From Candidatus Altimarinota bacterium (GTDB lineage: Bacteria > Patescibacteriota > Gracilibacteria > CAIRYL01), in contig OZ252287.1 in assembly GCA_965250085.1 (NCBI GenBank), positions 736,001 to 800,000 on the forward strand: a stretch of DNA of 64,000 nt. Reading direction: 5' to 3'. Below are positions 43,575 through 54,935 of the stretch, piece after piece (the first letter of the stretch is position 1; each line of letters opens with the position of its first letter). The notes under the pieces are model-generated. The model worked only from the letters and a program-made list of their open reading frames with translations, ran no database searches and was not told the origin of the DNA. The translations under genes were made by a program, and so were the position numbers.

Positions 43575-44162
43575 ATGTCAAACAACTTGGGTGTTCTTAT
43601 CCTTATTCTCGGCCCATCTGGAACTGGCAAAGGGACCACTATTGATCTCCTGCAAAAGCGTCATCCAGAATGGGTGTTCCCTCCCTCTGTCACTACTCGG
43701 CTTCCTCGTCCTGGGGAAAACGAAGGTGCAGTATATAATTTTGTATCCCTTGAAGAATTTGAAAAGAAAAAATCTATAGGTGAATTCTTGGAATGGGCAT
43801 GTGTTCACGAGTCTGACTATTATGGAACATTAAGATCAGAAATTTTGCCACCACTTGAAGAAGGAAAAATTGTCATTCGAGAGGTAGATGCACAAGGGTT
43901 TCTTTCTATTATAGAAAATTCAGAGATTCCCAGAAAAAATGTAATTGGAATTTTTTTATTCCCGTCTTCATCAGAAGAGCTTATTAATCGCATTACCAAA
44001 AGAGCACCCATTTCTCCGTTAGAACTTTCTCGAAGAATGGAAAGTCTGCAAAGAGAAATTGAAATCGCGAGCGCATGTGATTTTCAAATTCAAACTGAAG
44101 AAGGTGAATTAGCGCTTCCTGCAAATGAAATAGAACAAATTATAAAGCTCAAAACGCGTTGA
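43575..44162 (+). CDS. gmk: guanylate kinase
   Basis: GPSGTGKGT, TTRLPRPGE, FLEWA, YYGT. Confidence 0.96.
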   Translation: MSNNLGVLILILGPSGTGKGTTIDLLQKRHPEWVFPPSVTTRLPRPGENEGAVYNFVSLEEFEKKKSIGEFLEWACVHESDYYGTLRSEILPPLEEGKIVIREVDAQGFLSIIENSEIPRKNVIGIFLFPSSSEELINRITKRAPISPLELSRRMESLQREIEIASACDFQIQTEEGELALPANEIEQIIKLKTR

Positions 44163-44197: not shown

Positions 44198-44272
44198 TCG
44201 GGAGTCGCCAAGTGGTAAGGCAACGGGTTCTGGTCCCGTCATTCGGGGGTTCGAATCCCTCCTCCCGAGCCA
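44198..44272 (+). tRNA. tRNA-Gln (CTG), island integration site
   Basis: TCGGGAG acceptor, ACGGG TTCTGGT CCCGT anticodon arm, GTTCGAATC, CTCCCGAGCCA. Confidence 0.96.
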
Positions 44273-45804
44273 TTCAAGATTTTTGCTAAAAATAGAGAGT
44301 TGAAAGGTTCGTTAAGCTCTATTTCAAGCACCTTTCCGCCATGTGCAAAAATGTTTAGAACTGCCATTTCTGCGATTTCAAGTTTTTTATCACCGGAGAA
44401 GGTTTTATAGCTTGTAGACAGGCTTTTTAGCATGTTTAGAAATTTTTTAAAATCAGGTATAAATTTTGTTTCTTCTTTCTCCATTTTGCTTAGATCTTTG
44501 TTATAGTTTTTGATCTCATTTGTAAGTTCGGTTTTCTTTCGTCTGTATATTTTTCGCTGACTGGTATCATATTCTTTTCGATATAGCAGATGGTTTTCTT
44601 CAAGGTTGGTGAGATCGTTTTTTGCTTTTGTTCTTGAGCCTCTGATTCTTTTCTTTTCCTGTTCTCGTCTCTCAAACTCATCTTCAGAGTGTTTTCGAGC
44701 TGCTTTTATGTATTCGCGATACTTCTCTTCAGTGAACTTGGGACTAATATGCTTGAACTTACGATCAAGAGCCTCAACTATGTCTTTTGCTTGTATAGCC
44801 TTCAATTGAGACTTTGTGGGCACAGCAACTTTTTTCTTGTGGGCATTGTCTACAACATATCGGAGATATTTTACCTTTCCGTTGTTAATAATCTGTGGCT
44901 TATATTCTATGTTTGGAACGATCGCGTCGAAAATTTTTCCTCTCAAGGGTTTATCTACTTTTATATACTGACCACCGCTTCTTTCCATGCGCTGAGCTTC
45001 CCAATACTCTTCTTCCGTAATCATAGCTGGGAAATTATACTTTTCCCGAAGATCAACTTCCGAGTCTCCCTTCAGGTTCAAAATTCCACAATAAATCTTG
45101 TCTTTGAACATCTTGTTTATTTTTTGAGAAGTCATGTACTGTTTTTTTCTCGCTTTTTTTCCTGAGATCAGTTCTCGATAAAAACCTCTTTTATTAAGCC
45201 AATCGGCAATTCTTGGTTCTTTTTCTCCTGCTAACCTTTTTTGCCATGCTTGTTGTATGAGACGCCAAAATTTTCCTTTCGCGTATCTCTCTTTTTTAAT
45301 ATCATATCCAAATTTTGTTCTCCCCAGCGGGTGCCCTTCCTCATGTTTCCTTATATTTGCTTTCTTTACATGCGTACTGAGGTTGTCAGAATAATGTTTT
45401 GAAAAAACAAAGGATATTCCAAGGAGCATTTTACCGGTATCGTCTTTACTAAACTGTTGAGTACAGAACCTTAAATCAACAAGTTGCCCACTGTCTAAAA
45501 GGTCTATAATTTCACCTCCTTCAAACATGTTTCTTGCAAGACGATCTGGATGCCATGCGATAATGCCATCTATTTTTCCTGCTTTTATATCCTTGATCAT
45601 CTTTAGAAACTTAGGTCTTTGCCCGGACATTTTGGCAGACTTGCTTTCTTCTATTACGTTTACAACGGTAAGTCCATCTTTCTCTTCTAGTTTTTTGCAA
45701 AAATAAATTTGATCTGGGATTGAAGCAGCTTGCCGCTCCTTTTCTTCACTCGATTTTCGAGCGTAAATTACATACCGATCAGCTTTTTCTTGTAAAAAAT
45801 CCAT
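44239..45804 (-). CDS. large serine recombinase (integrase) overlapping tRNA-Gln
   Basis: YARKS catalytic Ser, SAK..RP.F, DRLARN, recombinase domain, coiled coil; last codons antisense to the tRNA. Confidence 0.92.
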   Translation of the reverse strand: MDFLQEKADRYVIYARKSSEEKERQAASIPDQIYFCKKLEEKDGLTVVNVIEESKSAKMSGQRPKFLKMIKDIKAGKIDGIIAWHPDRLARNMFEGGEIIDLLDSGQLVDLRFCTQQFSKDDTGKMLLGISFVFSKHYSDNLSTHVKKANIRKHEEGHPLGRTKFGYDIKKERYAKGKFWRLIQQAWQKRLAGEKEPRIADWLNKRGFYRELISGKKARKKQYMTSQKINKMFKDKIYCGILNLKGDSEVDLREKYNFPAMITEEEYWEAQRMERSGGQYIKVDKPLRGKIFDAIVPNIEYKPQIINNGKVKYLRYVVDNAHKKKVAVPTKSQLKAIQAKDIVEALDRKFKHISPKFTEEKYREYIKAARKHSEDEFERREQEKKRIRGSRTKAKNDLTNLEENHLLYRKEYDTSQRKIYRRKKTELTNEIKNYNKDLSKMEKEETKFIPDFKKFLNMLKSLSTSYKTFSGDKKLEIAEMAVLNIFAHGGKVLEIELNEPFNSLFLAKILNGSGGGIRTPE

Positions 45805-45848
45805 AGGTAAATTTTAAATTATTTTGAATTTTAAGGTAAGCTATAGCT

Positions 45849-46202
45849 ATGAAACACTACGAAGACCTCACCGATAAAGAAGGAAAAGAGGAATACCATC
45901 AGCAGGTTAGCAAAGACATGAAGCTCTTGGAAGAGAAGGGGATTGTAACCAAGAAAAAGGAAAATTTTGAGGGAAGACCGCTTTGGGAAACCTGCGTTCG
46001 TCCGGATTTTATTGTGAAGGCGATAGAACTCGCAAAGAAAGAAAAGGGAGATCCCAACAAGGTAATTATCAATGGGCAAGAGGTGTTACTCAGTTTTTTG
46101 CCATTCTTATTCTTTCTCAATGTAACCGACGAAGAGCAACATCGGAAAGCAGAAGAGTATTTGAAACAGCTCATGGCTAATGCAAAACTCGCAAGTCAAT
46201 AA
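45849..46202 (+). CDS. hypothetical protein divergent from the integrase
   Basis: 117-aa ORF with protein-like composition. Confidence 0.6.
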   Translation: MKHYEDLTDKEGKEEYHQQVSKDMKLLEEKGIVTKKKENFEGRPLWETCVRPDFIVKAIELAKKEKGDPNKVIINGQEVLLSFLPFLFFLNVTDEEQHRKAEEYLKQLMANAKLASQ

Positions 46203-46346
46203 GCAAGGGTAGCCTTTCGCCACGTGTTCGCTTGTGTGCCGACAACTCCTCTTTTTCGGAGATGATTGCCACCTTTGGCAAAAACGCGACATAGCGAAAA
46301 CGTGTGACACGTGTGCAAATTGAAGAAAATGCTGAAACTTACTTGT

Positions 46347-46760
46347 TCACTTGTTCATTCCTGAATTAAGAGGTTTGCTTCCATCAAAGTCTTGCATGAT
46401 TTTTTCCAAATTCTCTGGATCTCCCTGCATGGAAAATACTACATTCCCGCGCGTTTGGAGATTGATTTGGAATATGTCTTCGAAGTCCTCCTGCACGCCC
46501 TTAAGGGCAGTAAGACCATTTTTGAACTTCGCGGTGCTATCGAATCCCTTGATCACGAGTCTGCCATATTTAGTCTGCATCTCATAGTCTATAGACTCTT
46601 TTAAATCGATTAGAGTTGGTTCATCTGACTGGTCTTGAAGCTCTGTCACCTGTGAATCTTCGAGTCTGCTGATAATTTCTTGGATATCTGGAACGGACGA
46701 CGGTGAACATCCCGTCAGGATTGCAGCCATGATGACGACTACTGCTATAAATGGGAACAT
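46347..46760 (-). CDS. hypothetical lipoprotein
   Basis: Hydrophobic signal ending ILTGC. Confidence 0.65.
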   Translation of the reverse strand: MFPFIAVVVIMAAILTGCSPSSVPDIQEIISRLEDSQVTELQDQSDEPTLIDLKESIDYEMQTKYGRLVIKGFDSTAKFKNGLTALKGVQEDFEDIFQINLQTRGNVVFSMQGDPENLEKIMQDFDGSKPLNSGMNK

Positions 46761-46799
46761 GAGGAAAATATAAAATATACACAAAATGGGACGACCCTT

Positions 46800-46917
46800 T
46801 GAGCAGTCTCCCATCAGCTCTTGCGAACATCCGAAAGGCTAGAGCCGCCCCTCTTTATGCCCTTTTAGGCAAGAGGAAGCTGCTCGCAAAAAGCCAATGA
46901 TGATAGGAAACTGCTCA
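46800..46917 (-). ncRNA. candidate structured RNA leader
   Basis: ~30-bp closing stem TGAGCAGT...ACTGCTCA whose G-U pairs work only on the minus strand. Confidence 0.5.
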
Positions 46918-47022
46918 GCTACATACTACGAAAAAATCTTACTGGAGAGCAAGCAGTTGTTTTTAGAGCTCGCCGAGATTGACATATTTTAGAAAAAGTG
47001 TATTATGAGATACTGTCTTACA

Positions 47023-48448
47023 GGGAGCGTACCAATTTGGGGACCTGTTCTGTCATTTTTTGCGGTTGAGATTGATACAAAAAGGAATCCAATCATGAGA
47101 ATGGAAGTCGAAGCCAAATAGGTTTTTTGGATGAGCAGCTTGAAGAGGAGATTGACCATTCAAGTGCTTGAATTTTGTTTTACAGTCGGTGAATTTCCAG
47201 AATCTTCTCCTGAGAATAAGAGCATTTATATAATTGGCAGCAGTTTCTTCATGCTCAAACCCACGAATACCACTGAGCCTAATCTCCACAGAGGTGCTGT
47301 GATAGCCTTCAATGAGATTTGTAGTTCTTGGAATATCAAGCTCAGGATGGTTGATAGAGGCAATAATCAAATCTCTTTTCTTGTAGTAGTTATCATAAGC
47401 ATCTCGTATTTTTTGAGCATGTGGATATTTCTTTAAATCCATTCCAGCAATAGCGATATTGAGCTCGTCTTCTAATTTATTGAGGTCTTCTGTCGTCATT
47501 GCCGACCAAAATATTTTCTGTAAAATATGCTGAACAGTAATCAGGTAGTGGTATTCATGTTCAATATCTGCTAATTGATTGCTCAATTCCACAGCCTTAT
47601 TCTTATTATACTTGTGAGAAGATATGAGAATGCTCTTACCGAGATGAGCTAGTTTTTTCTCCAAGGAAGATATTTTTCTTTTGGCACTGTTCACCTTCAT
47701 ATTCCTATCTAATGCAGCACTATAGTGAGTAAGGCAGAGCTGAACAATAACATCGGGAAAGATTCTCTTCGCCACACTCATCGTCTCTCCCATGCTCTCA
47801 TCACAAACAACCACCTTCAGCGGATAGCCAATCTCCCTGAGCATTAAAAATCCTTGCTCAATATCATGCATATTCTCTGAAGCTGCCAAAATATGAACAG
47901 GAATATCGTGAGATTCATAATCCATGAAGGATATGTCTACAAGCCCCTTCTTTGTCTTCGCTTTTCTTCCGGTGACAGTCTGCTTGGAATCCTTTACTCC
48001 AATACACTTACCATCAACCAAAACAATCCCACAATAATTCTGAGGACACATCAAACGAGTCAGCTCATTGGAATCAATTAGTTTTGGCGTTGTCTTGTTT
48101 ATGATTTTGCAAATCGTCTTTTTATCCATCTCATTTTCTACGGCGAGAATACGGCATGAGTTTCTGTTGAGATGAGCCTTCAGGATTTCTTCTGCTTTTT
48201 TGTTTTTGTCGTTGAGAGTTATTTTCTTGCCGCAATCATGGCAGTAAATACGAAGATGGTTCCGGTGACGCCCTTTTCTTATAGTGTTGAGTCCTTCACA
48301 TACAGGACATCGAAGTTTTTTTTGTATTTGTCATAAATAAATTAAAGAAAAAAAGAAGAAATATTCTACTTTATCTCGATAACTTTCTCCAGAGCTTTAC
48401 CTCAAGCCGTTATTCTTAAATCACAGGCCCCCAAATTGGTACGCTCCC
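47023..48448 (-). mobile_element. IS256-like insertion sequence (1426 bp)
   Basis: 26-bp terminal IR GGGAGCGTACCAATTTGGGG(A/G)CCTGT; 9-bp target duplication TGTCTTACA at 47014-47022 and 48449-48457. Confidence 0.9.
47053..48334 (-). CDS. DDE transposase (IS256/Mutator-like) with N-terminal Zn ribbon; frameshift in A8 run near start
   Basis: LVDGK, VVCDE, QLCLTH, TTNLIEGYH; in-frame CPVC..CHDC upstream of 48129; ATG 48334 is 1 nt out of frame. Confidence 0.8.
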
Positions 48449-48611
48449 TGTCTTACAAGACTTTTGTTTTGTTCTTTAAAAACATCACTTTTGCCTACTG
48501 GTTGGCTTTTCTGCATTGAATAACTTCAGGAAATTCAACTGGTAGGCAAAAACGGCAGGCAGGAATAATTGATTTCTGTCCAACGATCCACACAAACGAA
48601 AGAGGCTAGAA

Positions 48612-49409
48612 ATGAAAGCGACGAACCGCTCCTCCCTCCTCACCACCCTTCTCGTACTGCTCGTTCTCGGTCTGGGCGCTTGCGCCACGACCGACCAACA
48701 GCAGCCGAGCGCCATTCAGAAGCTCGTCTTCCAATTCACCCCCAGACTGGTCGCCGAGCACGTCACCCCCGGAGTCTACGAAGTCCTGGCAAAGAATCTC
48801 GTCATGCAGTACGACTGGCGAGATCCGGAGAGCCCGGATCCGATGAGTTCGCGCTTCCAGATCGCGAATTGGAACATCCGAGGCGCCTATTACCGCGCCC
48901 ACGATGTCAACTGGGATTACGAGACCAGGACTGACCCGCGAAAAACCAAGCTCCCCGAGATGATCAACCTCGTCGTCGACAACGCCCGCTTCTTGCCCGA
49001 CGACTTGGTGGTCGGGCAGGCGGAGATCCTCAAGGAAGAGATCTCCGTTCTTGCTGCGGGAAACGACAGCTTCGATGCTGAAGAGGTGCTGGGCTCCTAC
49101 GCCGACAACGCGGAGCACTGGGCGGGGCTGATCGAGCTGTATCTCTCGGACAGGTACGGACTCATGGCGCTCGCTCGCACCATGGATCCGATCTACGAAA
49201 GCTACGATCGGCATCGCATCCGCACCGCGGAGGAGGAGCTCTACGATAACGAGGTCTACGGTCACCTGTTCAAGGAACAGCGTAGCAGGGACTTCGTCTA
49301 TCTGCTCCTCTGGTGCGAGCGCCGCGCCGTCAAGAGCTCGGGTGTGGACAATCTGCGCGCAATCGCCAACGCCCTGAAGCTCGGGGCGGAGACATTTCGC
49401 AGCAGCTAG
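48612..49409 (+). CDS. high-GC hypothetical lipoprotein
   Basis: Lipobox LGLGAC; strongly G/C-ending codons. Confidence 0.75.
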   Translation: MKATNRSSLLTTLLVLLVLGLGACATTDQQQPSAIQKLVFQFTPRLVAEHVTPGVYEVLAKNLVMQYDWRDPESPDPMSSRFQIANWNIRGAYYRAHDVNWDYETRTDPRKTKLPEMINLVVDNARFLPDDLVVGQAEILKEEISVLAAGNDSFDAEEVLGSYADNAEHWAGLIELYLSDRYGLMALARTMDPIYESYDRHRIRTAEEELYDNEVYGHLFKEQRSRDFVYLLLWCERRAVKSSGVDNLRAIANALKLGAETFRSS

Positions 49410-49603
49410 TGGAACGCGACCAACCTGCCTGCCAACGGTTGCTACCCACACTTCTCCGGTGCTAGGACTCGCTTCGCACATCCCGTGCAACAGCTGAGAC
49501 GGCGCACTGGCAAAAGTGTGTCATCTCAGCTATTCCTTGACCTCTGCAAAGAGTGTTGAGGGATGCGATTCCTAGCCCGGAGTGTCCTCACTCTGGGCTT
49601 TTT

Positions 49604-50227
49604 TCAATCTATTTTTTTATTCCTCTTCCAAAACGCCATCACCCCACCTGTACTCCGATATCCCAACTTCTCCGCAATCTCCCGCCATTTCTTCCTTCCC
49701 TTCCGCATCGCCCGGATACTTGTAATCTTCTCTCCGGAAAGAGTACTGCGCTTCTTTGGTCTACCGAGAATAACACCTTTTCTTCGGGCTGTTTCCAATC
49801 CCGCTTTGGTACGCTCGGAGATGATATTTGCCTCAAACTCTGCAAATATGCCCATCATCTGGAGAAACATCTTGCCCTGAGCGGTAGTCGTATCGATCTT
49901 GTTTTCAATAAAAATTATTTCTTTGCCATTCTCCTGAATCCGATTCACCACATTCTGCAAATCGATGTTATTCCGGGCAAGCCGGTCAATCTTCGTACAG
50001 ATCAGGATATCAAAACAATTCGTCTGTAACGTCTCACGTAACTTCGGGCGTTTCTTCAAATCCTTGGCACTGGCTTTCTCAATCACCACTCTCTTGAGCT
50101 TTATATGTTCATACTCACAGTATTTCCGAATCTGCTCTTTCTGGTGGTCGATCGAGTGCTTCTGTTTGTTCTCATTCGTACTGATCCGCACGTACCCTAT
50201 AGCCTGAGTTGGAGTCGATTGCCTCAT
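49604..50227 (-). CDS. small serine resolvase/invertase
   Basis: GYVRIST, KIDRLARN, IDTTTAQGK, FAEFE, LGRP, C-terminal HTH. Confidence 0.92.
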   Translation of the reverse strand: MRQSTPTQAIGYVRISTNENKQKHSIDHQKEQIRKYCEYEHIKLKRVVIEKASAKDLKKRPKLRETLQTNCFDILICTKIDRLARNNIDLQNVVNRIQENGKEIIFIENKIDTTTAQGKMFLQMMGIFAEFEANIISERTKAGLETARRKGVILGRPKKRSTLSGEKITSIRAMRKGRKKWREIAEKLGYRSTGGVMAFWKRNKKID

Positions 50228-50339
50228 TATAAAGCGAAAAATCGATCACGTGTTACCTCTGTAGCGACTGCAAGTCAACTCATAAACGGTCGTTTATGAG
50301 ATAAGGAAATGAGGGTTTATGCCTAAAAATAGGCAGATA

Positions 50340-51244
50340 TAGCTAACTCAAAATAAATTGATCTAAAATAATGCATGAGAAAAGAGATCAGAAACGGAAC
50401 ATCGTTTCTGTTTTCTGACAGCTTTTGCTTGACCCCATTTATGTTCAATAGGATTGAGGTCGGGAGAATAGGGAGGGAGATAAAGAAGGGTGTGCTCTGC
50501 ATCCTCAAGAGCTTGTTTCATGTCTAAACGTTTGTGGAACATGGCGTTGTCCATGACGACCACAGAGTTAGGAGGAAGCTGTGGTATGAGATCTTCAGTA
50601 AGCCAGGCATAAAAGACATCTGAGTCAATGTTACAGTCAAAAAGGCAAACAGTGAGCAAATGGTTGTTTATGATAGCTCCAATAACATTGACTCTCCCTC
50701 TGGCATGCCAATCTTGGACTCCGTAGCACCTTTCTCCTCTTGTGCTGTATCCATGAGTTCTCGGCATATCATGGGCGAAACCACTTTCATCAAGATACAC
50801 AATAACTCTTCCTTCTCTTGTATATTTTTCTATCTTCCTGAGAAATGCTCCCCTGAGTACTTCATCTGCTTTGGGATGATACAGAGTTTTTTTTATGACT
50901 GACTGCAAGCCTGCGTAAAGCATACAGAATGCCATTCGGACTCACTCCAAATTTTTTCGCTCTTTCCCATTGGTAATCATCTGGATATTGTTTCACATCC
51001 TTCTTTAATTTCTTCATATCTATTTTTGTTGCTGGCTTATTTCTTTTTAAACACGGTTCTATCCGCCTTGCCCATCGGAATAGCGATGCTATTCCCACTC
51101 CAAATCTTTTACTGGTTTCTAAGAATGTAAGTCCTTCCTTTCCTTTGATCTTCATTACTTGCTGACGAAATTTAAGTGGATATGACATATCGAATGGGTG
51201 AAAGAATATCACCCACAGTATATCATATTATCCTGAGTTAGCTA
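50340..51244 (-). mobile_element. IS630 family element (~905 bp)
   Basis: IR TAGCTAACTCA(AA/GG)ATAA flanked by TA on both sides. Confidence 0.88.
50363..51188 (-). CDS. IS630 transposase, two ORFs joined by -1 frameshift at A8 (50887-50894)
   Basis: HTH ORF MSYPLKFR plus DDE ORF (YLDESGF, VMDNA, LPPYSPDLNPIE); junction KKTL. Confidence 0.9.
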
Positions 51245-51287
51245 TAGATACGATCGAGATGCCAGAAATGAAGTGAACTTCTGAACA

Positions 51288-51482
51288 TCATTCCTGCTCT
51301 TCGTACGCTTTGTTCATATTCACCAGCAGGATGTTCAACATGTTTACCAAATCCTGATCATCATTTTTTTCATACTCCATTATCGTCCGGATTACTTCGT
51401 CGCGAAGTCTTAGCAGTAACTCTGTTCGTTCCTCAGATACAAGTTTTTTGAGTTCGGCGAGAGTGAACAGCTGATTTTTCAT
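51288..51482 (-). CDS. small hypothetical protein
   Basis: 64-aa helical ORF. Confidence 0.5.
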   Translation of the reverse strand: MKNQLFTLAELKKLVSEERTELLLRLRDEVIRTIMEYEKNDDQDLVNMLNILLVNMNKAYEEQE

Positions 51483-51540
51483 AATCTCGTGGAATACATC
51501 AAAACACTACGTATTTGGTTTTATACAGTCAATAAAACAA

Positions 51541-51824
51541 ATTTGAGCTTTATTCTAAAACCCCGAAAAGTGTCACTTTTTGTAACATTCAATCGAGAAA
51601 AGTAGCTGAAACAAGCCATTTTCATATTTTCTCTGAACAGCTATTTCTTAGAAAGAAACAACAGAATGCTATAAAGAAGTTTCAAAATTGCGAATTTTTG
51701 GCTTTTTGAAGTCAGAAAAACAGATTTGTGCTTTATCTAGAAACCCTGATAATTGTTCATTTTTGTACACCTGAATCAAAGAAAGTAGCTTAAATAAGCC
51801 ATTTTATATTTTCTCAAAAGAGCA
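51541..51824. repeat. two imperfect ~100-bp direct repeats
   Basis: ..GCTTTAT..AAACCC..TTTTTGTA..AAAGTAGCT.AAA.AAGCCATTTT.ATATTTTCTC at ~51541 and ~51724. Confidence 0.7.
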
Positions 51825-51967
51825 GATTTTTCTATTGTTTTACGAAAGAAAGCCAAAAAAACGGTGAAAAAGTGTGAAAACGGTGAAAAAATGTGTGATT
51901 TTTTGTGACGGGATTTTTCTAAAAAACCTATATTGATTGACTGATTTCCATCTTCACCTTTAAGGAA

Positions 51968-52354
51968 TCAGAAAGGCAGATCACCCTTCAAGTATTCTTT
52001 TGCACGATTGTAGTTCATGTCTGTATTGTCTTTCTTTTTGTAATAAATTTCGAGAAATTTAACTTTCATTTCTTTAGGATAGAATGCGTAGATTACTCTG
52101 ATCCCGCTTCTATTTCCTTTCCCTTTCAGAGATTTGCAGGCAAATTTTTTAATTTTGCAGATCTCAATTGTTTCGTAACAATACCCGGAGACTCTCTGAA
52201 CGCTGTGATTATCAATACCTTGAACATGGAAAAGTTCTATGGCATTTCTTTTCACAGTTTCTAAATCTTCTCCCAGAGTGGAGTATTTTTTGAGCAGCCG
52301 TTTCAGGTCTCGTTCAAACTCATGAGTCTGATTATACTGTATTTTCTTCTTCAT
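51968..52354 (-). CDS. RelE/ParE-like toxin
   Basis: EFERDLKRLLKKY..KGNRSGIRVIYA..LEIYYK; overlaps the antitoxin stop. Confidence 0.75.
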   Translation of the reverse strand: MKKKIQYNQTHEFERDLKRLLKKYSTLGEDLETVKRNAIELFHVQGIDNHSVQRVSGYCYETIEICKIKKFACKSLKGKGNRSGIRVIYAFYPKEMKVKFLEIYYKKKDNTDMNYNRAKEYLKGDLPF

Positions 52355-53108
52355 ATTGCCGTACTGAGGTTTGTGGAGTGCGATAGAAAACAGCCTCATA
52401 ATCAATAGGCTTTCCGTCTTCAGCTGTAATCCATGGCACGTCCTCGTGAGAAAGGTCACTCAACTCCTTTGCACTTTTTCCAGAGAGTCGACCTAAAACG
52501 TTATCTATATGTTTGATTTCTCTTGCTGAAAGAAAATCGATATTTGGTTTTTTGATTGGCAAGTATTTTGTTTGATCATATTTAAAATACTTTGTTTTTA
52601 CTTCTTCTATTTCTTCATCTGTAATCATTTCATCGACAATTTTACGAAACGCTATCGGAGTAGGACCGAGGCGATTTTTAATGTAAACAGCCCCAACCAG
52701 TTGCTCCTCAAACTTTTCGTAATAATCAAAGTCACAAAAATACAGCAATTTATAGAGAACAGTTTGTCCTATGTTCGGCAATGCTCCTACTTTCTGTGTT
52801 ATGTAGAGCAATACTTGCTTGAATTTTTCTACGTTTTCCTGGGGAACGCTAATTCGGATAGCTGCTTCTAGAGACTTTTTGTCCTTAGTCTTTTCTAAGT
52901 CAACTTCGTATTTCTCTTCTTTTTCGTTTAACAACGTTCCCAATGAGATATCAAAAATTGTAGCAAATTTCTTTGCTTCGGAAAGAGTCAACTCTCTTTC
53001 TCCAGAAAAAATCTTTCCAACAGTTGGTCGCGAAACCCCCAACTCTTGAGAAAGAAACTCCTGAGAGAAACCTTTCTTCTTGCGAAGTTTTTCTAAAAAT
53101 GTATCCAT
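52332..53108 (-). CDS. XRE-HTH plus DUF4065 (Panacea/SocA-like) antitoxin
   Basis: LRKKKGFSQEFLS; LYKLLYFCDF, GP, LSDLSHEDVPW. Confidence 0.85.
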   Translation of the reverse strand: MDTFLEKLRKKKGFSQEFLSQELGVSRPTVGKIFSGERELTLSEAKKFATIFDISLGTLLNEKEEKYEVDLEKTKDKKSLEAAIRISVPQENVEKFKQVLLYITQKVGALPNIGQTVLYKLLYFCDFDYYEKFEEQLVGAVYIKNRLGPTPIAFRKIVDEMITDEEIEEVKTKYFKYDQTKYLPIKKPNIDFLSAREIKHIDNVLGRLSGKSAKELSDLSHEDVPWITAEDGKPIDYEAVFYRTPQTSVRQYEEENTV

Positions 53109-53123
53109 TTGGCAAGGGTAAAT

Positions 53124-53360
53124 TTAGCCGCGAGGCGGGAATTTATCTCTACTACGAGGATAGGTATTCTTTTCATGGATTACGCCATCTCGACGCTGTA
53201 CCACCATCTCCAAACCTTGATTTTTTGCTACCTCACGAGCAACTTCTCTTGCGTCTTGCTTGTCCTCAATAACGCGAATTGCCCGCTCAGCTCCAGGTTT
53301 GTGAACTTTCCAGTCGCCATGACCGGCGGGTGAAACCCAAATTTGATTATTATTAGTCAT
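53124..53360 (-). CDS. DUF2188 family protein
   Basis: WKVHKPGAERA..A...AR..AKN..E.VVQRRDG.I...NTY..D.FPPRG. Confidence 0.85.
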   Translation of the reverse strand: MTNNNQIWVSPAGHGDWKVHKPGAERAIRVIEDKQDAREVAREVAKNQGLEMVVQRRDGVIHEKNTYPRSRDKFPPRG

Positions 53361-53382
53361 AAAAAATGTTAATTACATCCTC

Positions 53383-53435
53383 AGTTTATCGTTTGTAATT
53401 TTTTTTGTCAATAGCTTTGTAAAACTTTTTTACAA
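53383..53435 (-). promoter_or_regulatory. sigma70 promoter with adjacent palindromic operator
   Basis: TTGACA-N17-TAAACT (53411 to 53383); palindrome TTGTAAAA-nn(n)-TTTTACAA at ~53417-53434. Confidence 0.65.
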
Positions 53436-53735
53436 GAGACTTAAAAGACCCTACCAGAGATAGTGTTTAGAATCCAGAACGGCTAATCATTTAATAATCG
53501 GATTTTATAGCTTCACACCTGCAAAATCCCGCTTCACTGAATACGCTTTTTTTGAGAACTCTGAGAACCTCTGTACCAAAAGACCTGCACTTTTGCGGTT
53601 TTCCTGCATATACTGCATCAAGTGTTTAGCAACTGCATCCACTCCCGAGCCAATGCTATTTTATGGCTTTAAAGTAGACTAGACGAAAAATTAGCAGCAA
53701 CTGTGCTAAGTATTTTTGGGAGAAGTAATAATTTT

Positions 53736-54935
53736 TTATGTTATTTTCGTTAGTGGTATTTTTATACTTCCAGTACGTTTAAATAAGTGCTTTGATGTTT
53801 TTGGCGGAAAAAGATTTTTGCTCATCCCCATGACTACTACTTCACCTTTTGTTACATTCTCATTCTCTCTCCAAGAGGATACCTGTACTCCTTTGCTCTG
53901 ATAATCTACAAAATGAACAGGTATAGTGGAAAACGCCATTGCCTTCAAGATAGCATATCTATGATGCCCATCAAGAATAATAAGAGTTTTTTGATCAACA
54001 ACAATAGGTTCAACATACCCATTTATTTGAATATCTTTAGAAAGCTTATTGCAATATATTTTATCTATTTGTTCATGCTGTTTAAGTTTTTTTATAGGGA
54101 CTAATTCAACTTTTTTTTTAGATATATAGTGTATTTTTTTTTCTTGCTTTGAGAATAGTAATGAAGCATTTTTTAAATCAGTATCATTATCGATCTCATA
54201 CCATTGTATATCTTCAACCAAGTGCGCATAGATTCCTGTTGAAGATACTAAAGACTCAAAAGCTACTTCGTAATAATCATTTTTCCCATGATTGCTCATA
54301 TAACTTTCTAAAGTAGGTATAAAATATTTTTCAAAAAACTGCTTTTTAAACAAATATATATTAATAGTTTTATATTTATCTATAAAATAGTTTTTTGTTT
54401 TTTCTTGATTCTTTGAACCAATAAAACTTTTTATTTTGCTAGTTTTTTCATCCATTGTAATTACAGTTCCAGAAATAGCTTTGTCATATTTCGCTACCAA
54501 AACTAAATTCTGATGATTGGCATCCAAAAGAGGTGTTAACATTTCTTTTTCAAACACAAGATCTCCTTCAAGGCAGATAACATCATTTTTTATATAATCT
54601 TTTGTAAGCCACAAAGAATACATATTATTGGTTGAAGCGTGATCCTTATTGAGCACATACATTATTTTCATTCCTTTATAAAATTTTCCAATATGCTCCT
54701 TTATTTTTTCAGCTTTATGCCCCACCACAATTATTACTTCTTCAATTTTTTTTAATTCAGCAAGATGATTTAAAGCTCTTTTTATAATGGTTTCACCGCT
54801 AACCTCAACCATGACCTTGGGAATGTTCTCTGTCAGTGGCAGCAATCTGCTTCCACTTCCGGCTGCCAAAATTATAGCCTGCATTTTATTTGTTTTTTCT
54901 GTTGGCTTTCCTTTCTTTAAGTTGTGATTTGACAT
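53736..54935 (-). CDS. LicC-like cytidylyltransferase fused to ParB/Srx (SerK/SbnI-like) domain
   Basis: ILAAGSGSRL..PK, TNNMYSL, EGDL, WYEIDN; C-terminal LKQHEQ..ILDGHHR..VDY..W..FPPKTSKH. Confidence 0.8.
   Translation of the reverse strand: MSNHNLKKGKPTEKTNKMQAIILAAGSGSRLLPLTENIPKVMVEVSGETIIKRALNHLAELKKIEEVIIVVGHKAEKIKEHIGKFYKGMKIMYVLNKDHASTNNMYSLWLTKDYIKNDVICLEGDLVFEKEMLTPLLDANHQNLVLVAKYDKAISGTVITMDEKTSKIKSFIGSKNQEKTKNYFIDKYKTINIYLFKKQFFEKYFIPTLESYMSNHGKNDYYEVAFESLVSSTGIYAHLVEDIQWYEIDNDTDLKNASLLFSKQEKKIHYISKKKVELVPIKKLKQHEQIDKIYCNKLSKDIQINGYVEPIVVDQKTLIILDGHHRYAILKAMAFSTIPVHFVDYQSKGVQVSSWRENENVTKGEVVVMGMSKNLFPPKTSKHLFKRTGSIKIPLTKIT

Follow-up and report, generated by a model that had tools for sequence, protein, structure and literature searches.

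As far as the available text of a review describes it (PMC6070905), the closest precedent for the integrase analyzed here is IntP/IntX of Myxococcus phage Mx8, where attP is part of the integrase coding sequence and the gene acquires a new 3' end on integration. The properties of the integrated Mx8 form are, in that text, changed rather than inactivated, and the arrangement is called a switch. Both Mx8 and SSV integrases extend across attP according to the Islander paper (PMC4383910). The archaeal tyrosine integrases of the SSV type have their recombination site within the ORF, and the gene is altered on integration (PMC7253208, available text). Integration-dependent immunity of mycobacteriophages also involves an attP inside an ORF, which loses its C-terminal segment on integration; in the accessible part of the source (PMC3694055) these switches are described as having no directionality factor and an Int with a C-terminal degradation tag.

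How large serine integrases choose the direction of recombination is a central question in phage biology and genome engineering. To our knowledge, the known systems need a separate directionality factor, as is the case for the canonical Listeria A118/LI, phiC31 and Bxb1 integrases. Targeting of tRNA genes was, according to the Islander paper of November 2014, not known for serine integrases.

Here we describe a locus in a 64-kb stretch of DNA (the window, meaning the whole stretch analyzed) that encodes a large serine integrase whose gene itself contains attP, 45 codons ahead of its stop. It works like the Mx8 type but is not homologous to it: in both, the attP core lies in the integrase ORF and integration creates a new 3' end instead of two fragments, whereas Mx8 Int is a tyrosine recombinase and the window enzyme belongs to a class that differs in its chemistry and has short att sites and control by a coiled coil. 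Moreover, Mx8 is a single phage lineage, whereas the exchange of tails by the serine integrase is a family trait over 161 loci. No serine-integrase case of a C-terminus changed by integration was found in our literature searches. The original prediction for this locus had pointed to SSV-type integrases and mycobacteriophage repressors as precedents for genes split by att sites, but missed Mx8 IntP/IntX.

A suicidal integrase of the SSV type was rejected. The SSV gene is split into two inactive pseudogenes, whereas here the last 42-52 codons are exchanged and the integrated ORF of the window remains a single ORF that keeps residues 1-514 with all recognised domains; the former is an archaeal tyrosine recombinase and the latter a bacterial serine recombinase. 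The mycobacteriophage system, as far as the same partial source goes, is alike in that the DNA state sets the properties of a protein, but there a repressor gene is split and the integrase is of the tyrosine type. Integration-dependent immunity was rejected as well, as attP is in the integrase gene and the XRE-type gene at 52332-53108 is not crossed.

Results and Discussion

Anatomy of the element

The integrative element of 9.4 kb occupies positions 44262-53652 of the window, at the 3' end of a tRNA-Gln(CTG) gene. Its features and flanks are as follows.

43575-44162, plus strand: putative host guanylate kinase-like gene (ORF, named from sequence), left flank of the island
44198-44272, plus strand: tRNA-Gln(CTG) (ARAGORN), integration target, whose 3' end forms the attB/attL core
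44239-45804, minus strand: large serine integrase, integrated short form, 521 aa (ORF; Pfam PF00239 and PF07508)
44262-44272: attL copy of the 11-bp core CTCCCGAGCCA (exact repeat)
44273-44290: attP arm on the integrase side, part of the integrase coding sequence; distal repeat TTGCTAAA at 44283-44290
45849-46202, plus strand: cargo ORF, 117 aa, no Pfam family
46347-46814, minus strand: cargo ORF, 155 aa, no Pfam family
47023-48448, minus strand: multi-copy insertion sequence of 1426 bp inside the island, with a 358-aa ORF at 47053-48129, no Pfam family
48485-49490: high-GC insert with overlapping ORFs on both strands, no Pfam family
49604-50227, minus strand: small serine recombinase of resolvase/invertase type, 207 aa (Pfam PF00239, E 1e-39)
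50363-51212, minus strand: IS630-family transposase in two overlapping ORFs (Pfam DDE_3, E 9e-36; HTH_Tnp_IS630, E 2.5e-23)
within 51968-53360, minus strand: 163-aa ORF, no Pfam family
52332-53108, minus strand: XRE-HTH and SocA/Panacea antitoxin-like protein (Pfam)
53124-53360, minus strand: DUF2188 protein (Pfam)
53505-53642, minus strand: tail segment, comprising the final 45 codons of the integrase in its circle form, in frame across the core
53625-53641: attP far arm; distal repeat TTTAGCAA at 53625-53632
53642-53652: attR copy of the 11-bp core (exact repeat)
from 53653: host right flank, the sequence directly 3' of tRNA-Gln in relative G015 (empty-site match)
53736-54935, minus strand: nucleotidyl-transferase gene reading toward the orphan tail (Pfam NTP_transferase)

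The core CTCCCGAGCCA occurs exactly twice in the window, and when up to one mismatch was allowed three matches were seen against a shuffle mean of 0.42 (three or more in 0/100 shuffles). Support for the island ends comes from an empty site in a relative of the same order (G015, L169), where a tRNA-Gln(CTG) ends in the identical 11-mer and is directly followed by ATCTTATTTTATGGCTT..., matching the window from 53653 onward (ATGCTATTTTATGGCTT...). Homologues of the guanylate kinase-like gene, at 38-55% identity, were present in 20 of the 21 genomes searched (including G000), and at three of the 11 relatives' loci examined the gene is followed by tRNA-Gln(CTG). Within the island, Logan contigs break at both ends of the insertion sequence at 47023-48448, whose 1426-bp contig is covered about twice as deeply as adjacent ones, and the insert at 48485-49490 has a GC content of 56-61% compared with 31-47% around it.

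Exchange of the integrase C-terminus

In the integrated state the 521-aa integrase ends in ...ILNGSGGGIRTPE; its last seven residues and the stop codon are antisense to the tRNA, of which the ORF overlaps the last 34 nt on the opposite strand. Joining the two repeats computationally, as in the excised circle, adds a 45-aa tail in the integrase frame and gives a protein of 559 aa (514-aa body plus tail). On the minus strand a codon starts at 44262, the equivalent of 53642, and the 45-aa ORF begins exactly there; the three frames directly past the far core are open for 7, 4 and 44 codons, and that of the integrase is the 44-codon one. In the chromosome the tail segment is left as an orphan ORF at attR.

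The rebuilt attP, and none of the other sites, carries a perfect 8-bp inverted repeat formed by TTTAGCAA and TTGCTAAA, placed symmetrically about the G|A step in the core at a distance of 16-23 bp. Symmetric runs of at least this length were found at 18/5000 junctions with shuffled flanks and at 38/5000 junctions of random window flanks, and the symmetric run is only 3, 4 and 5 bp in attB, attL and attR, respectively. Thus each structural element of the original prediction was confirmed: an integrase ORF that runs through attL into tRNA-Gln, an attP within this ORF where integration swaps a 45-aa tail for seven residues, joined repeats that keep the frame (559 vs 521 aa, tail at 53505-53642), and the inverted repeat of the rebuilt attP.

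The N-terminal catalytic domain (Pfam Resolvase PF00239, E 3e-24, residues 12-157), with Y14, R16 and S18 invariant across 25 aligned homologues, is followed by a Recombinase domain (PF07508, E 3.4e-7, residues 182-273). Among 8000 scored candidates 918 homologues were found at E<=0.001. The window integrase also aligns through the coiled-coil region seen with high confidence in the AlphaFold model of L159 (helices 353-399 and 407-438). In the stretch of the zinc ribbon Cys is absent from the window integrase and from the 16 homologues aligning most closely with it (P0002-P0018 without P0010); in the same alignment P0019-P0026 have CxxC...C...C in this stretch, and PF13408 is recorded for many more distant homologues. 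Judging from this alignment, the zinc-ribbon domain is probably kept without zinc in the window subgroup. Resolvase and Recombinase domains, a coiled coil in the C-terminal domain and short shared cores are features in common with the canonical large serine integrases, whose distal symmetric attP motifs the inverted repeat of the rebuilt attP resembles; the differences are the attP inside the gene and the tRNA-gene targets of this family and, in the window subgroup, the lack of the four zinc-binding cysteines.

A family of related elements

We examined 161 related loci (the window included, not de-duplicated, mostly labelled Patescibacteria). At 120 of these the stretch from the conserved C-terminal anchor to the integrase stop includes the 3' end of an antisense tRNA, the targets being tRNA-Pro (63), Leu (15), Met (14), Val (6), Ile (6), Ala (5), Gln (4), Asn (2), Ser (2), Asp (1), Arg (1) and Tyr (1). 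The elements are about 2.9 to 9.5 kb in size with shared cores of 4-15 bp, and the segment coding for the tail is found at the far end, on the same strand as the integrase. A tail HMM gave 45 matches at E<0.2 (35 non-seed). Every match shares the strand of the integrase and is either contiguous with it or located 2.8-9.4 kb upstream of it. When the 24 unique non-seed elements were joined at the common core adjoining the tRNA end, the junction was in frame in 22 (binomial p 4e-9 against an expectation of 1/3), giving tails of 42-52 aa, and out of frame in two. Uninterrupted long ORFs also exist without any joining, in L044, L068, L100, L148 and L159, with L044 and L100 being tandem arrays that keep one long form. 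In addition, a 3988-bp contig (L038) with a 55-bp terminal overlap closes into a circle of 3933 bp, where the integrase ORF crosses the junction uninterrupted into a 46-aa tail. Tail exchange by integration is hence a family trait, not a single case.

Neither an attP nor an attB junction was observed for the element in the window itself, as would also be the case if the 11-bp repeat and the open frame were coincidental and no discrete element existed. We regard this as extremely improbable in view of the repeat statistics, the inverted repeat exclusive to the rebuilt attP, the empty site in G015, the recurrence across the family and the circular relative.

The tRNA-Pro group allowed a comparison of sites. 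In its 22 elements TTGAA follows GTCG at 17 nt in the attP far arm (20/22) and at 12 nt in the attB tRNA arm (15/22). The motif is thus 5 bp further out in attP than in attB, which is the large-serine-integrase pattern given in the available text of PMC3783163, where the zinc-ribbon-domain motif is shifted 5 bp inward in attB. In the attB of the window no clear shifted distal motif was visible by eye. From the sequences, the antisense tRNA T-loop (TTGAAC) appears to be the distal DNA motif of attB. The first tail codons are also the attP far arm: three elements with integrases of 51-69% identity have GCTAAACACTT in common without any difference, and TTGAAC supplies the near-invariant Glu codon of the tail. 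Conservation of the tail start may therefore be partly at the DNA level.

Constraint on the tail

Beyond the first 10 codons, pN was lower than pS in 31/31 tail pairs. The closest relatives of the window element, L087 and L088 (integrases 51-52% identical, tRNA-Val targets), join in frame at TGGTGG into 45-aa tails that have K6, H7, S18, A33 and R38 in common with the window tail, and a profile of these three tails matches residues 516-543 of P0014, a natural 558-aa form (E 1.7e-4, with a profile-match probability of 49.5%). At the C-terminal residue the 27 rebuilt circle tails and those of the window, L087 and L088 are aromatic or hydrophobic, with one exception (L064, Cys). Two results from related elements came out in favor of the original prediction: a circular form exists in a relative (the assembled L038 contig), and the extension in homologous elements is conserved, open and under purifying selection (22/24 in frame; pN<pS in 31/31), the latter being a check that the prediction had proposed. 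We are highly confident of the gene architecture together with selection on the tail.

The tail evolves faster than the body. Between the window and L088 or L087 the bodies are 51-52% identical and the tails 30% and 18%, and between L087 and L088 the values are 69% and 40%. Comparison of window-type tails with those of the larger subgroup gave no significant similarity (hhalign, match probability 3.6%), so the tails need not all be of common descent. In the AlphaFold model of the L159 long form the prediction is confident up to the junction (mean pLDDT 87.2), with the last confident helix (496-506) ending just before it, and low in the tail (pLDDT 31-57). This suggests a body that is complete even if the tail is missing. 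Nothing usable on tail function came from structure or complex predictions.

A small ORF with the motif LNxT(S/T)ISDNNGGRIEL is conserved at 87 of the 161 loci (90 matches, all on the integrase strand, many abutting the integrase start) and was not found in the window. It could be an ordinary directionality factor, and its frequency counts against the switch being necessarily built-in. It also fits an explanation in which attP merely overlaps the 3' end of the gene, the tail being a loosely constrained extension (folding, solubility or a degron) whose loss is without regulatory meaning, while a separate factor such as this one sets direction. Rapid evolution, low model confidence and a tail start whose conservation is explicable at the DNA level agree with that idea, yet the window tail is intact and conserved with no small ORF detected there, and length, the aromatic/hydrophobic ending and dN<dS are kept across very divergent elements. 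The gene-spanning layout is further kept through switches among at least 12 tRNA identities, which makes an accident hard to credit, and we consider this explanation quite unlikely.

Two forms of one integrase

Taken together, we think it probable that this is an element with an integrase gene spanning attP, where the DNA state sets the isoform of the enzyme, as in Mx8 IntP/IntX. Crossover at the core leaves the body at attL with seven antisense-tRNA residues and strands the tail codons at attR. Selection would see the tail only in the whole gene (circle or tandem arrays), and from this we infer that the full-length protein is the form that does the job of the circle, integration. The tail-less integrated protein would keep all catalytic and DNA-binding domains and may have altered activity, stability or partner binding. 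Whether the isoforms differ in recombination activity or stability could go either way in our estimation; that such a difference specifically sets the direction of recombination is possible but doubtful.

Possibly, the tail is instead needed for any efficient recombination, so that the short form is crippled in a milder kind of suicidal integration and the element is nearly fixed unless a circle or a tandem neighbour supplies a full-length copy. Selection on the tail only via the whole gene is in line with this, as are the dominance of short forms in public data (120/161 loci integrated), the just four long non-tRNA tails counted by eye among the C-termini listed, and the single long form retained in the tandem arrays L044 and L100. 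Suicidal tyrosine integrases of archaea offer a precedent (available text of PMC7253208), and with its two insertion sequences and foreign high-GC piece the window element resembles a long-resident island. However, the short form retains the catalytic, recombinase, zinc-ribbon-like and coiled-coil parts, and the prophage form of the Mx8 integrase is not inactivated according to the accessible part of the review (PMC6070905). Tail ORFs at attR are furthermore intact and in frame in 22/24 elements, which argues for frequent return to the circle. Near-fixation of this kind seems unlikely to us.

Returning to isoforms set by the DNA state, the most specific version, to which we give little credence, is a two-state toggle with the tail as a built-in excision blocker: the circle form would only integrate, and the tail-less form would excise. 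The tail might block by covering the surface, on the coiled coil or zinc ribbon, that is used by a directionality factor, and the chromosomal form would then be free to excise, alone or with the product of the small ORF. If true, such a toggle would be self-contained and need no regulated expression of a directionality factor, which would suit elements of 3 kb, and genome engineering would gain ready-made enzyme pairs, with one member integrate-only and the other excise-capable.

Each integrase form is tied to one DNA state, and the question of direction becomes testable in a new way, since the two natural forms differ only in the 45-aa tail. For annotation, hundreds of public 'integrase' entries are truncated chromosomal forms, and dozens of 'hypothetical proteins' of 41-170 aa are stranded integrase tails. 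With this family, tRNA-gene targeting extends to a large set of serine integrases. Little is known of mobile elements in Patescibacteria, and the integrative elements described here are very small, starting at about 2.9 kb.

Integrase gene and rebuilt attachment site

The integrating element occupies 44262-53652 of the window and is bounded by two exact copies of CTCCCGAGCCA, the final 11 nt of tRNA-Gln(CTG), at 44262-44272 (attL) and 53642-53652 (attR).

Features at the left boundary of the element
44198-44272, plus strand: tRNA-Gln(CTG), called by ARAGORN
44239-45804, minus strand: integrase ORF of 521 aa with Pfam Resolvase and Recombinase domains and the C-terminus ...ILNGSGGGIRTPE

An integrase codon starts on the minus strand at 44262, the equivalent of 53642, and a 45-aa ORF (53505-53642) starts there exactly. 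Joining the repeats therefore keeps the frame for 45 codons, so that residues 1-514 (the body) plus a 45-aa tail give an enzyme of 559 aa. When the three frames after the far core were read, the two non-integrase frames closed after 7 and 4 codons. Translation table 11 is appropriate, since TGA is used as the stop in 8 of the 41 window ORFs of at least 200 aa. The original prediction of an integrase ORF running through attL into tRNA-Gln, with an in-frame tail in the circle (559 vs 521 aa), was confirmed in the sequence. So was its perfect 8-bp inverted repeat in the rebuilt attP, the joint of the excised circle, where TTTAGCAA (53625-53632) and TTGCTAAA (44283-44290) lie symmetrically around the GA step of the core. 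A run of that length was matched in 18 of 5000 shuffled-flank and 38 of 5000 random-flank junctions, and it is not present in attB (the empty tRNA site), attL or attR, where the longest symmetric runs are 3, 4 and 5 bp, respectively. A naive dyad scan of rebuilt attP sites in relatives was mostly not significant.

The window junction was joined by hand; the constrained junction finder described below gave no core here because the window tail lacks the first 8 positions of the tail profile. An automatic search for exact repeats of at least 9 nt near tRNA ends was discarded, as its top match in the window was a chance 12-mer and its output was mostly chance overall.

The island ends were confirmed from outside by an empty-site arrangement in the genome of a relative from the same order (G015), where tRNA-Gln(CTG), lying after a guanylate-kinase homologue and sharing the 3' end seen in the window, runs straight into sequence that matches the window from 53653 onward. 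Just past this tRNA-Gln the relative (locus L169) has a hairpin-like sequence, ATTTTATGGCTT...AAGCCATAAAAT, a probable terminator of the tRNA, of which only the first half follows the attR core in the window (53653-53690). Both attL and attR were bridged by Logan contigs of four runs that contain the window (one sample of one study, possibly its source). No attP or attB joint was found in the contigs of these runs, which drop rare variants and hence are uninformative on excision.

Contents of the island

The host genome is a single 1.37-Mb contig, and besides the integrase its 9.4-kb island holds ORFs of no known family together with the following features.

Features inside the island
47023-48448: multi-copy repeat of 1426 bp, its 358-aa ORF without a Pfam family; contigs break at both ends in 4 of 4 runs, depth about 2x that of the neighbours
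48485-49490: piece of about 1 kb with high GC (56-61% vs 31-47% in the surround), no Pfam family
49604-50227: small serine recombinase
50363-51212: IS630-family transposase, divided between two overlapping ORFs (one HTH, one DDE)
51968-53108: XRE-HTH/Panacea antitoxin-like gene and an overlapping 163-aa ORF of no family
Within the island: DUF2188 gene (Pfam)

The 1426-bp repeat has the appearance of an insertion sequence from an undescribed family, and the two-ORF IS630 transposase could be a frameshifted or broken copy. Both strands of the high-GC piece contain long ORFs, one of which opens with a lipoprotein-like signal, and the piece adjoins the small serine recombinase gene. In one of the four runs (X1) 48638-50839 had no contig cover. 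By eye, we take the C-terminal half of the 163-aa ORF to resemble a RelE/Gp49-type toxin.

The same layout in related integrases

Related loci (L-numbers) were taken as the best 80 of 383 species-genome matches and the best 80 of at least 470 metagenome matches, which with the window gave 161. Alignment of the 25 best homologues stopped abruptly, for nearly all, at the G-rich position of the window's NGSG, and most of the listed homologue C-termini look by eye like antisense tRNA (e.g. ...GRGDRT and ...SGFEPD...). In 120 loci out of 161 the stretch from the conserved C-terminal anchor to the integrase stop contained a tRNA 3' end in antisense, a count that includes the window and keeps duplicates (at least L035/L115 and L106/L150 give identical rebuilt junction peptides). 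The remaining loci had no tRNA call (27, several of them less than 100 bp from a contig end), ran off the contig (7) or lacked coverage of the C-terminus (7). Twelve tRNA identities were targeted, Pro being the commonest with 63 loci.

Homologues in named records belong to Peribacteria, Peregrinibacteria, Gracilibacteria, Saccharibacteria and other Patescibacteria, and some come from bins labelled Gammaproteobacteria. Records with this element beside tRNA genes that are labelled Gammaproteobacteria, Pseudomonadales, Burkholderiales, Salinisphaerales or Pseudomonadota are L023, L026, L028, L030-L033, L045, L050, L052, L055, L063, L066, L067, L070 and L078; such labels on Patescibacteria-type elements could reflect mis-binning, wrong labels or real spread. 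A scan of the viral contigs in IMG/VR gave no relatives. Minimal elements carry little cargo: L027 has one 237-aa ORF, by eye a methyltransferase, and in L048 there are an ORF of 209 aa and a protein of 141 aa, the latter with a weak resemblance to small terminase subunits that does not reach the Pfam cut-off. In alignment A1 the four zinc-ribbon cysteines are missing from the window integrase (residues ~290-340) and its 16 closest aligned homologues, and are kept in more distant members.

The tail is a conserved coding sequence

In four loci (the window, L035, L048 and L064) a long exact repeat at the tRNA end led to an in-frame tail of 42-46 aa, and on five contigs (L044, L068, L100, L148 and L159) the long ORF is uninterrupted. 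Candidates from the repeat search were dropped where the 'repeat' was a second tRNA-Pro gene (L059) or came without a convincing tail (L013 and L034). The in-frame and uninterrupted tails, together with those of the homologous proteins P0020 and P0074, seeded a tail HMM, which gave 45 matches at E<0.2, all on the integrase strand, some running on from the gene and the rest 2.8-9.4 kb upstream of it. For each integrated locus with a match, the junction was then set, ignoring frame, at the longest string shared by the region of the tRNA 3' end from offset -8 to +4 and the 36-nt stretch in front of the HMM match. By this rule the junction was in frame in 22 of 24 unique non-seed elements (p 4e-9), the shortest cores being GTCG; it replaced an earlier longest-common-substring finder that mis-picked cores (21/30 in frame). 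With the first ten codons set aside, pN was lower than pS in all 31 of 31 comparable tail pairs, which are not independent of each other. Thus, with homologous tRNA-overlapping integrases collected and their attP rebuilt, the extension proved to be conserved, open and under purifying selection, a check that the original prediction had proposed.

Within the subgroup to which the window belongs, L087 and L088 have an in-frame joint at TGGTGG to 45-aa tails that can be aligned with the window tail, and a profile of these three matched the tail of a natural 558-aa protein (P0014, E 1.7e-4). The ends of the 3988-bp contig L038 overlap by 55 bp, and when it is read as a 3933-bp circle its integrase ORF crosses the junction into a 46-aa tail. 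Tandem arrays with two elements per tRNA site were seen at L044:10001-14978 and L100:759-8729, with the upstream integrase copy long and a second integrase gene downstream, so that the long ORF presumably reads into the tail of the next element; the inner junction thus resembles a resident attP. Another element (L055:5974-6100) has at its far end two tandem core copies with a repeated 50-60-nt unit, which may be the scar of serial integrations.

Searched against 1.84 billion representative proteins, the tail profile gave 84 matches at E<=0.001, nearly all C-terminal in ORFs of 41-170 aa, and no other family or function for the tail emerged. Dozens of public 'proteins' of 41-170 aa (P0121-P0204) are stranded tails with arbitrary N-terminal extensions called from host flank.

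Coding sequence and attachment site overlap

Aligned on GTCG, 22 tRNA-Pro elements have TTGAA 17 nt after GTCG in the attP far arm (20/22), and in the tRNA arm of attB it lies 12 nt after GTCG in 15/22, the others being TCGAA-type variants by eye; this attB TTGAA is the antisense T-loop. Rutherford et al. (PMC3783163) found that the zinc-ribbon-domain motif of the Listeria integrase lies closer to the centre in attB, by 5 bp relative to attP, and this inward shift holds in the tRNA-Pro elements. Since TTGAA appears to serve as a site motif, a near-invariant Glu of the tail (GAA in TTGAAC) may be fixed by DNA recognition. In the window's subgroup GCTAAACACTT, which encodes AKH(F/L), is 22 nt from the tRNA end in the window and L087 and 23 nt in L088, where its version is CTAAACACTT. 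The tail start and body end thus double as coding sequence and predicted integrase-binding site.

Tail structure and a candidate partner

An AlphaFold model of the L159 long form, made from alignment A4 (104 sequences), had a mean pLDDT of 87.2 and showed the catalytic, recombinase and zinc-ribbon-like domains and the coiled coil as expected, whereas residues past the junction scored 31-57. The confident domains end before the low-scoring tail, and the modelled body therefore looks complete without it; the tail may need a partner in order to fold. Complex predictions of the L159 body with the tail scored 0.08 and 0.02, under the 0.32 mark needed for a verdict, and an ESM Atlas search with one tail gave no usable match. 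The tail changes faster in sequence than the body, and no similarity was detectable between window-type and Saccharibacteria-type tails.

Of the 161 loci, 87 (L048:7645-7983, L027:8748-8954, L038 and 84 further loci) carry a conserved small ORF of ~58-112 aa marked by the motif LNxT(S/T)ISDNNGGRIEL. All 90 of 90 matches are on the integrase strand, and the ORF either abuts the integrase start or lies just past the tail. This candidate for a directionality factor or regulator was not found in the window.

Relation to known systems and proposed mechanism

The nearest precedent is phage Mx8, in which attP lies inside int and integration creates a new int 3' end without inactivating the enzyme (PMC6070905), while archaeal SSV-type integrases split their own gene into pseudogenes (PMC7253208) and some mycobacteriophages split a repressor gene, thereby removing a degradation tag (PMC3694055). 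All three use tyrosine recombinases, whereas the window element has a serine integrase. Full-text searches, covering main texts and few subscription journals, found neither a serine integrase with attP inside its own gene nor a description of this family. An integrase 3' end altered by integration is thus already known from Mx8, and the variant here would be its occurrence in a serine-integrase family. A joint can also regulate the enzyme in another way: when Tn4451 excises, a promoter that drives its serine recombinase is formed at the joint of the circle.

As the gene is whole only in the circle or a tandem array, selection on the tail would act there. The full-length enzyme would be the integrating form, and integration would leave a complete but tail-less enzyme with changed activity, stability or partner response. 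The originally proposed built-in directionality or stability switch is partly supported: attP lies within the integrase gene and integration exchanges a conserved tail, whose switching role is hypothetical. The tail-swapping layout, which 120 of the 161 loci show, can be tested directly at the bench.
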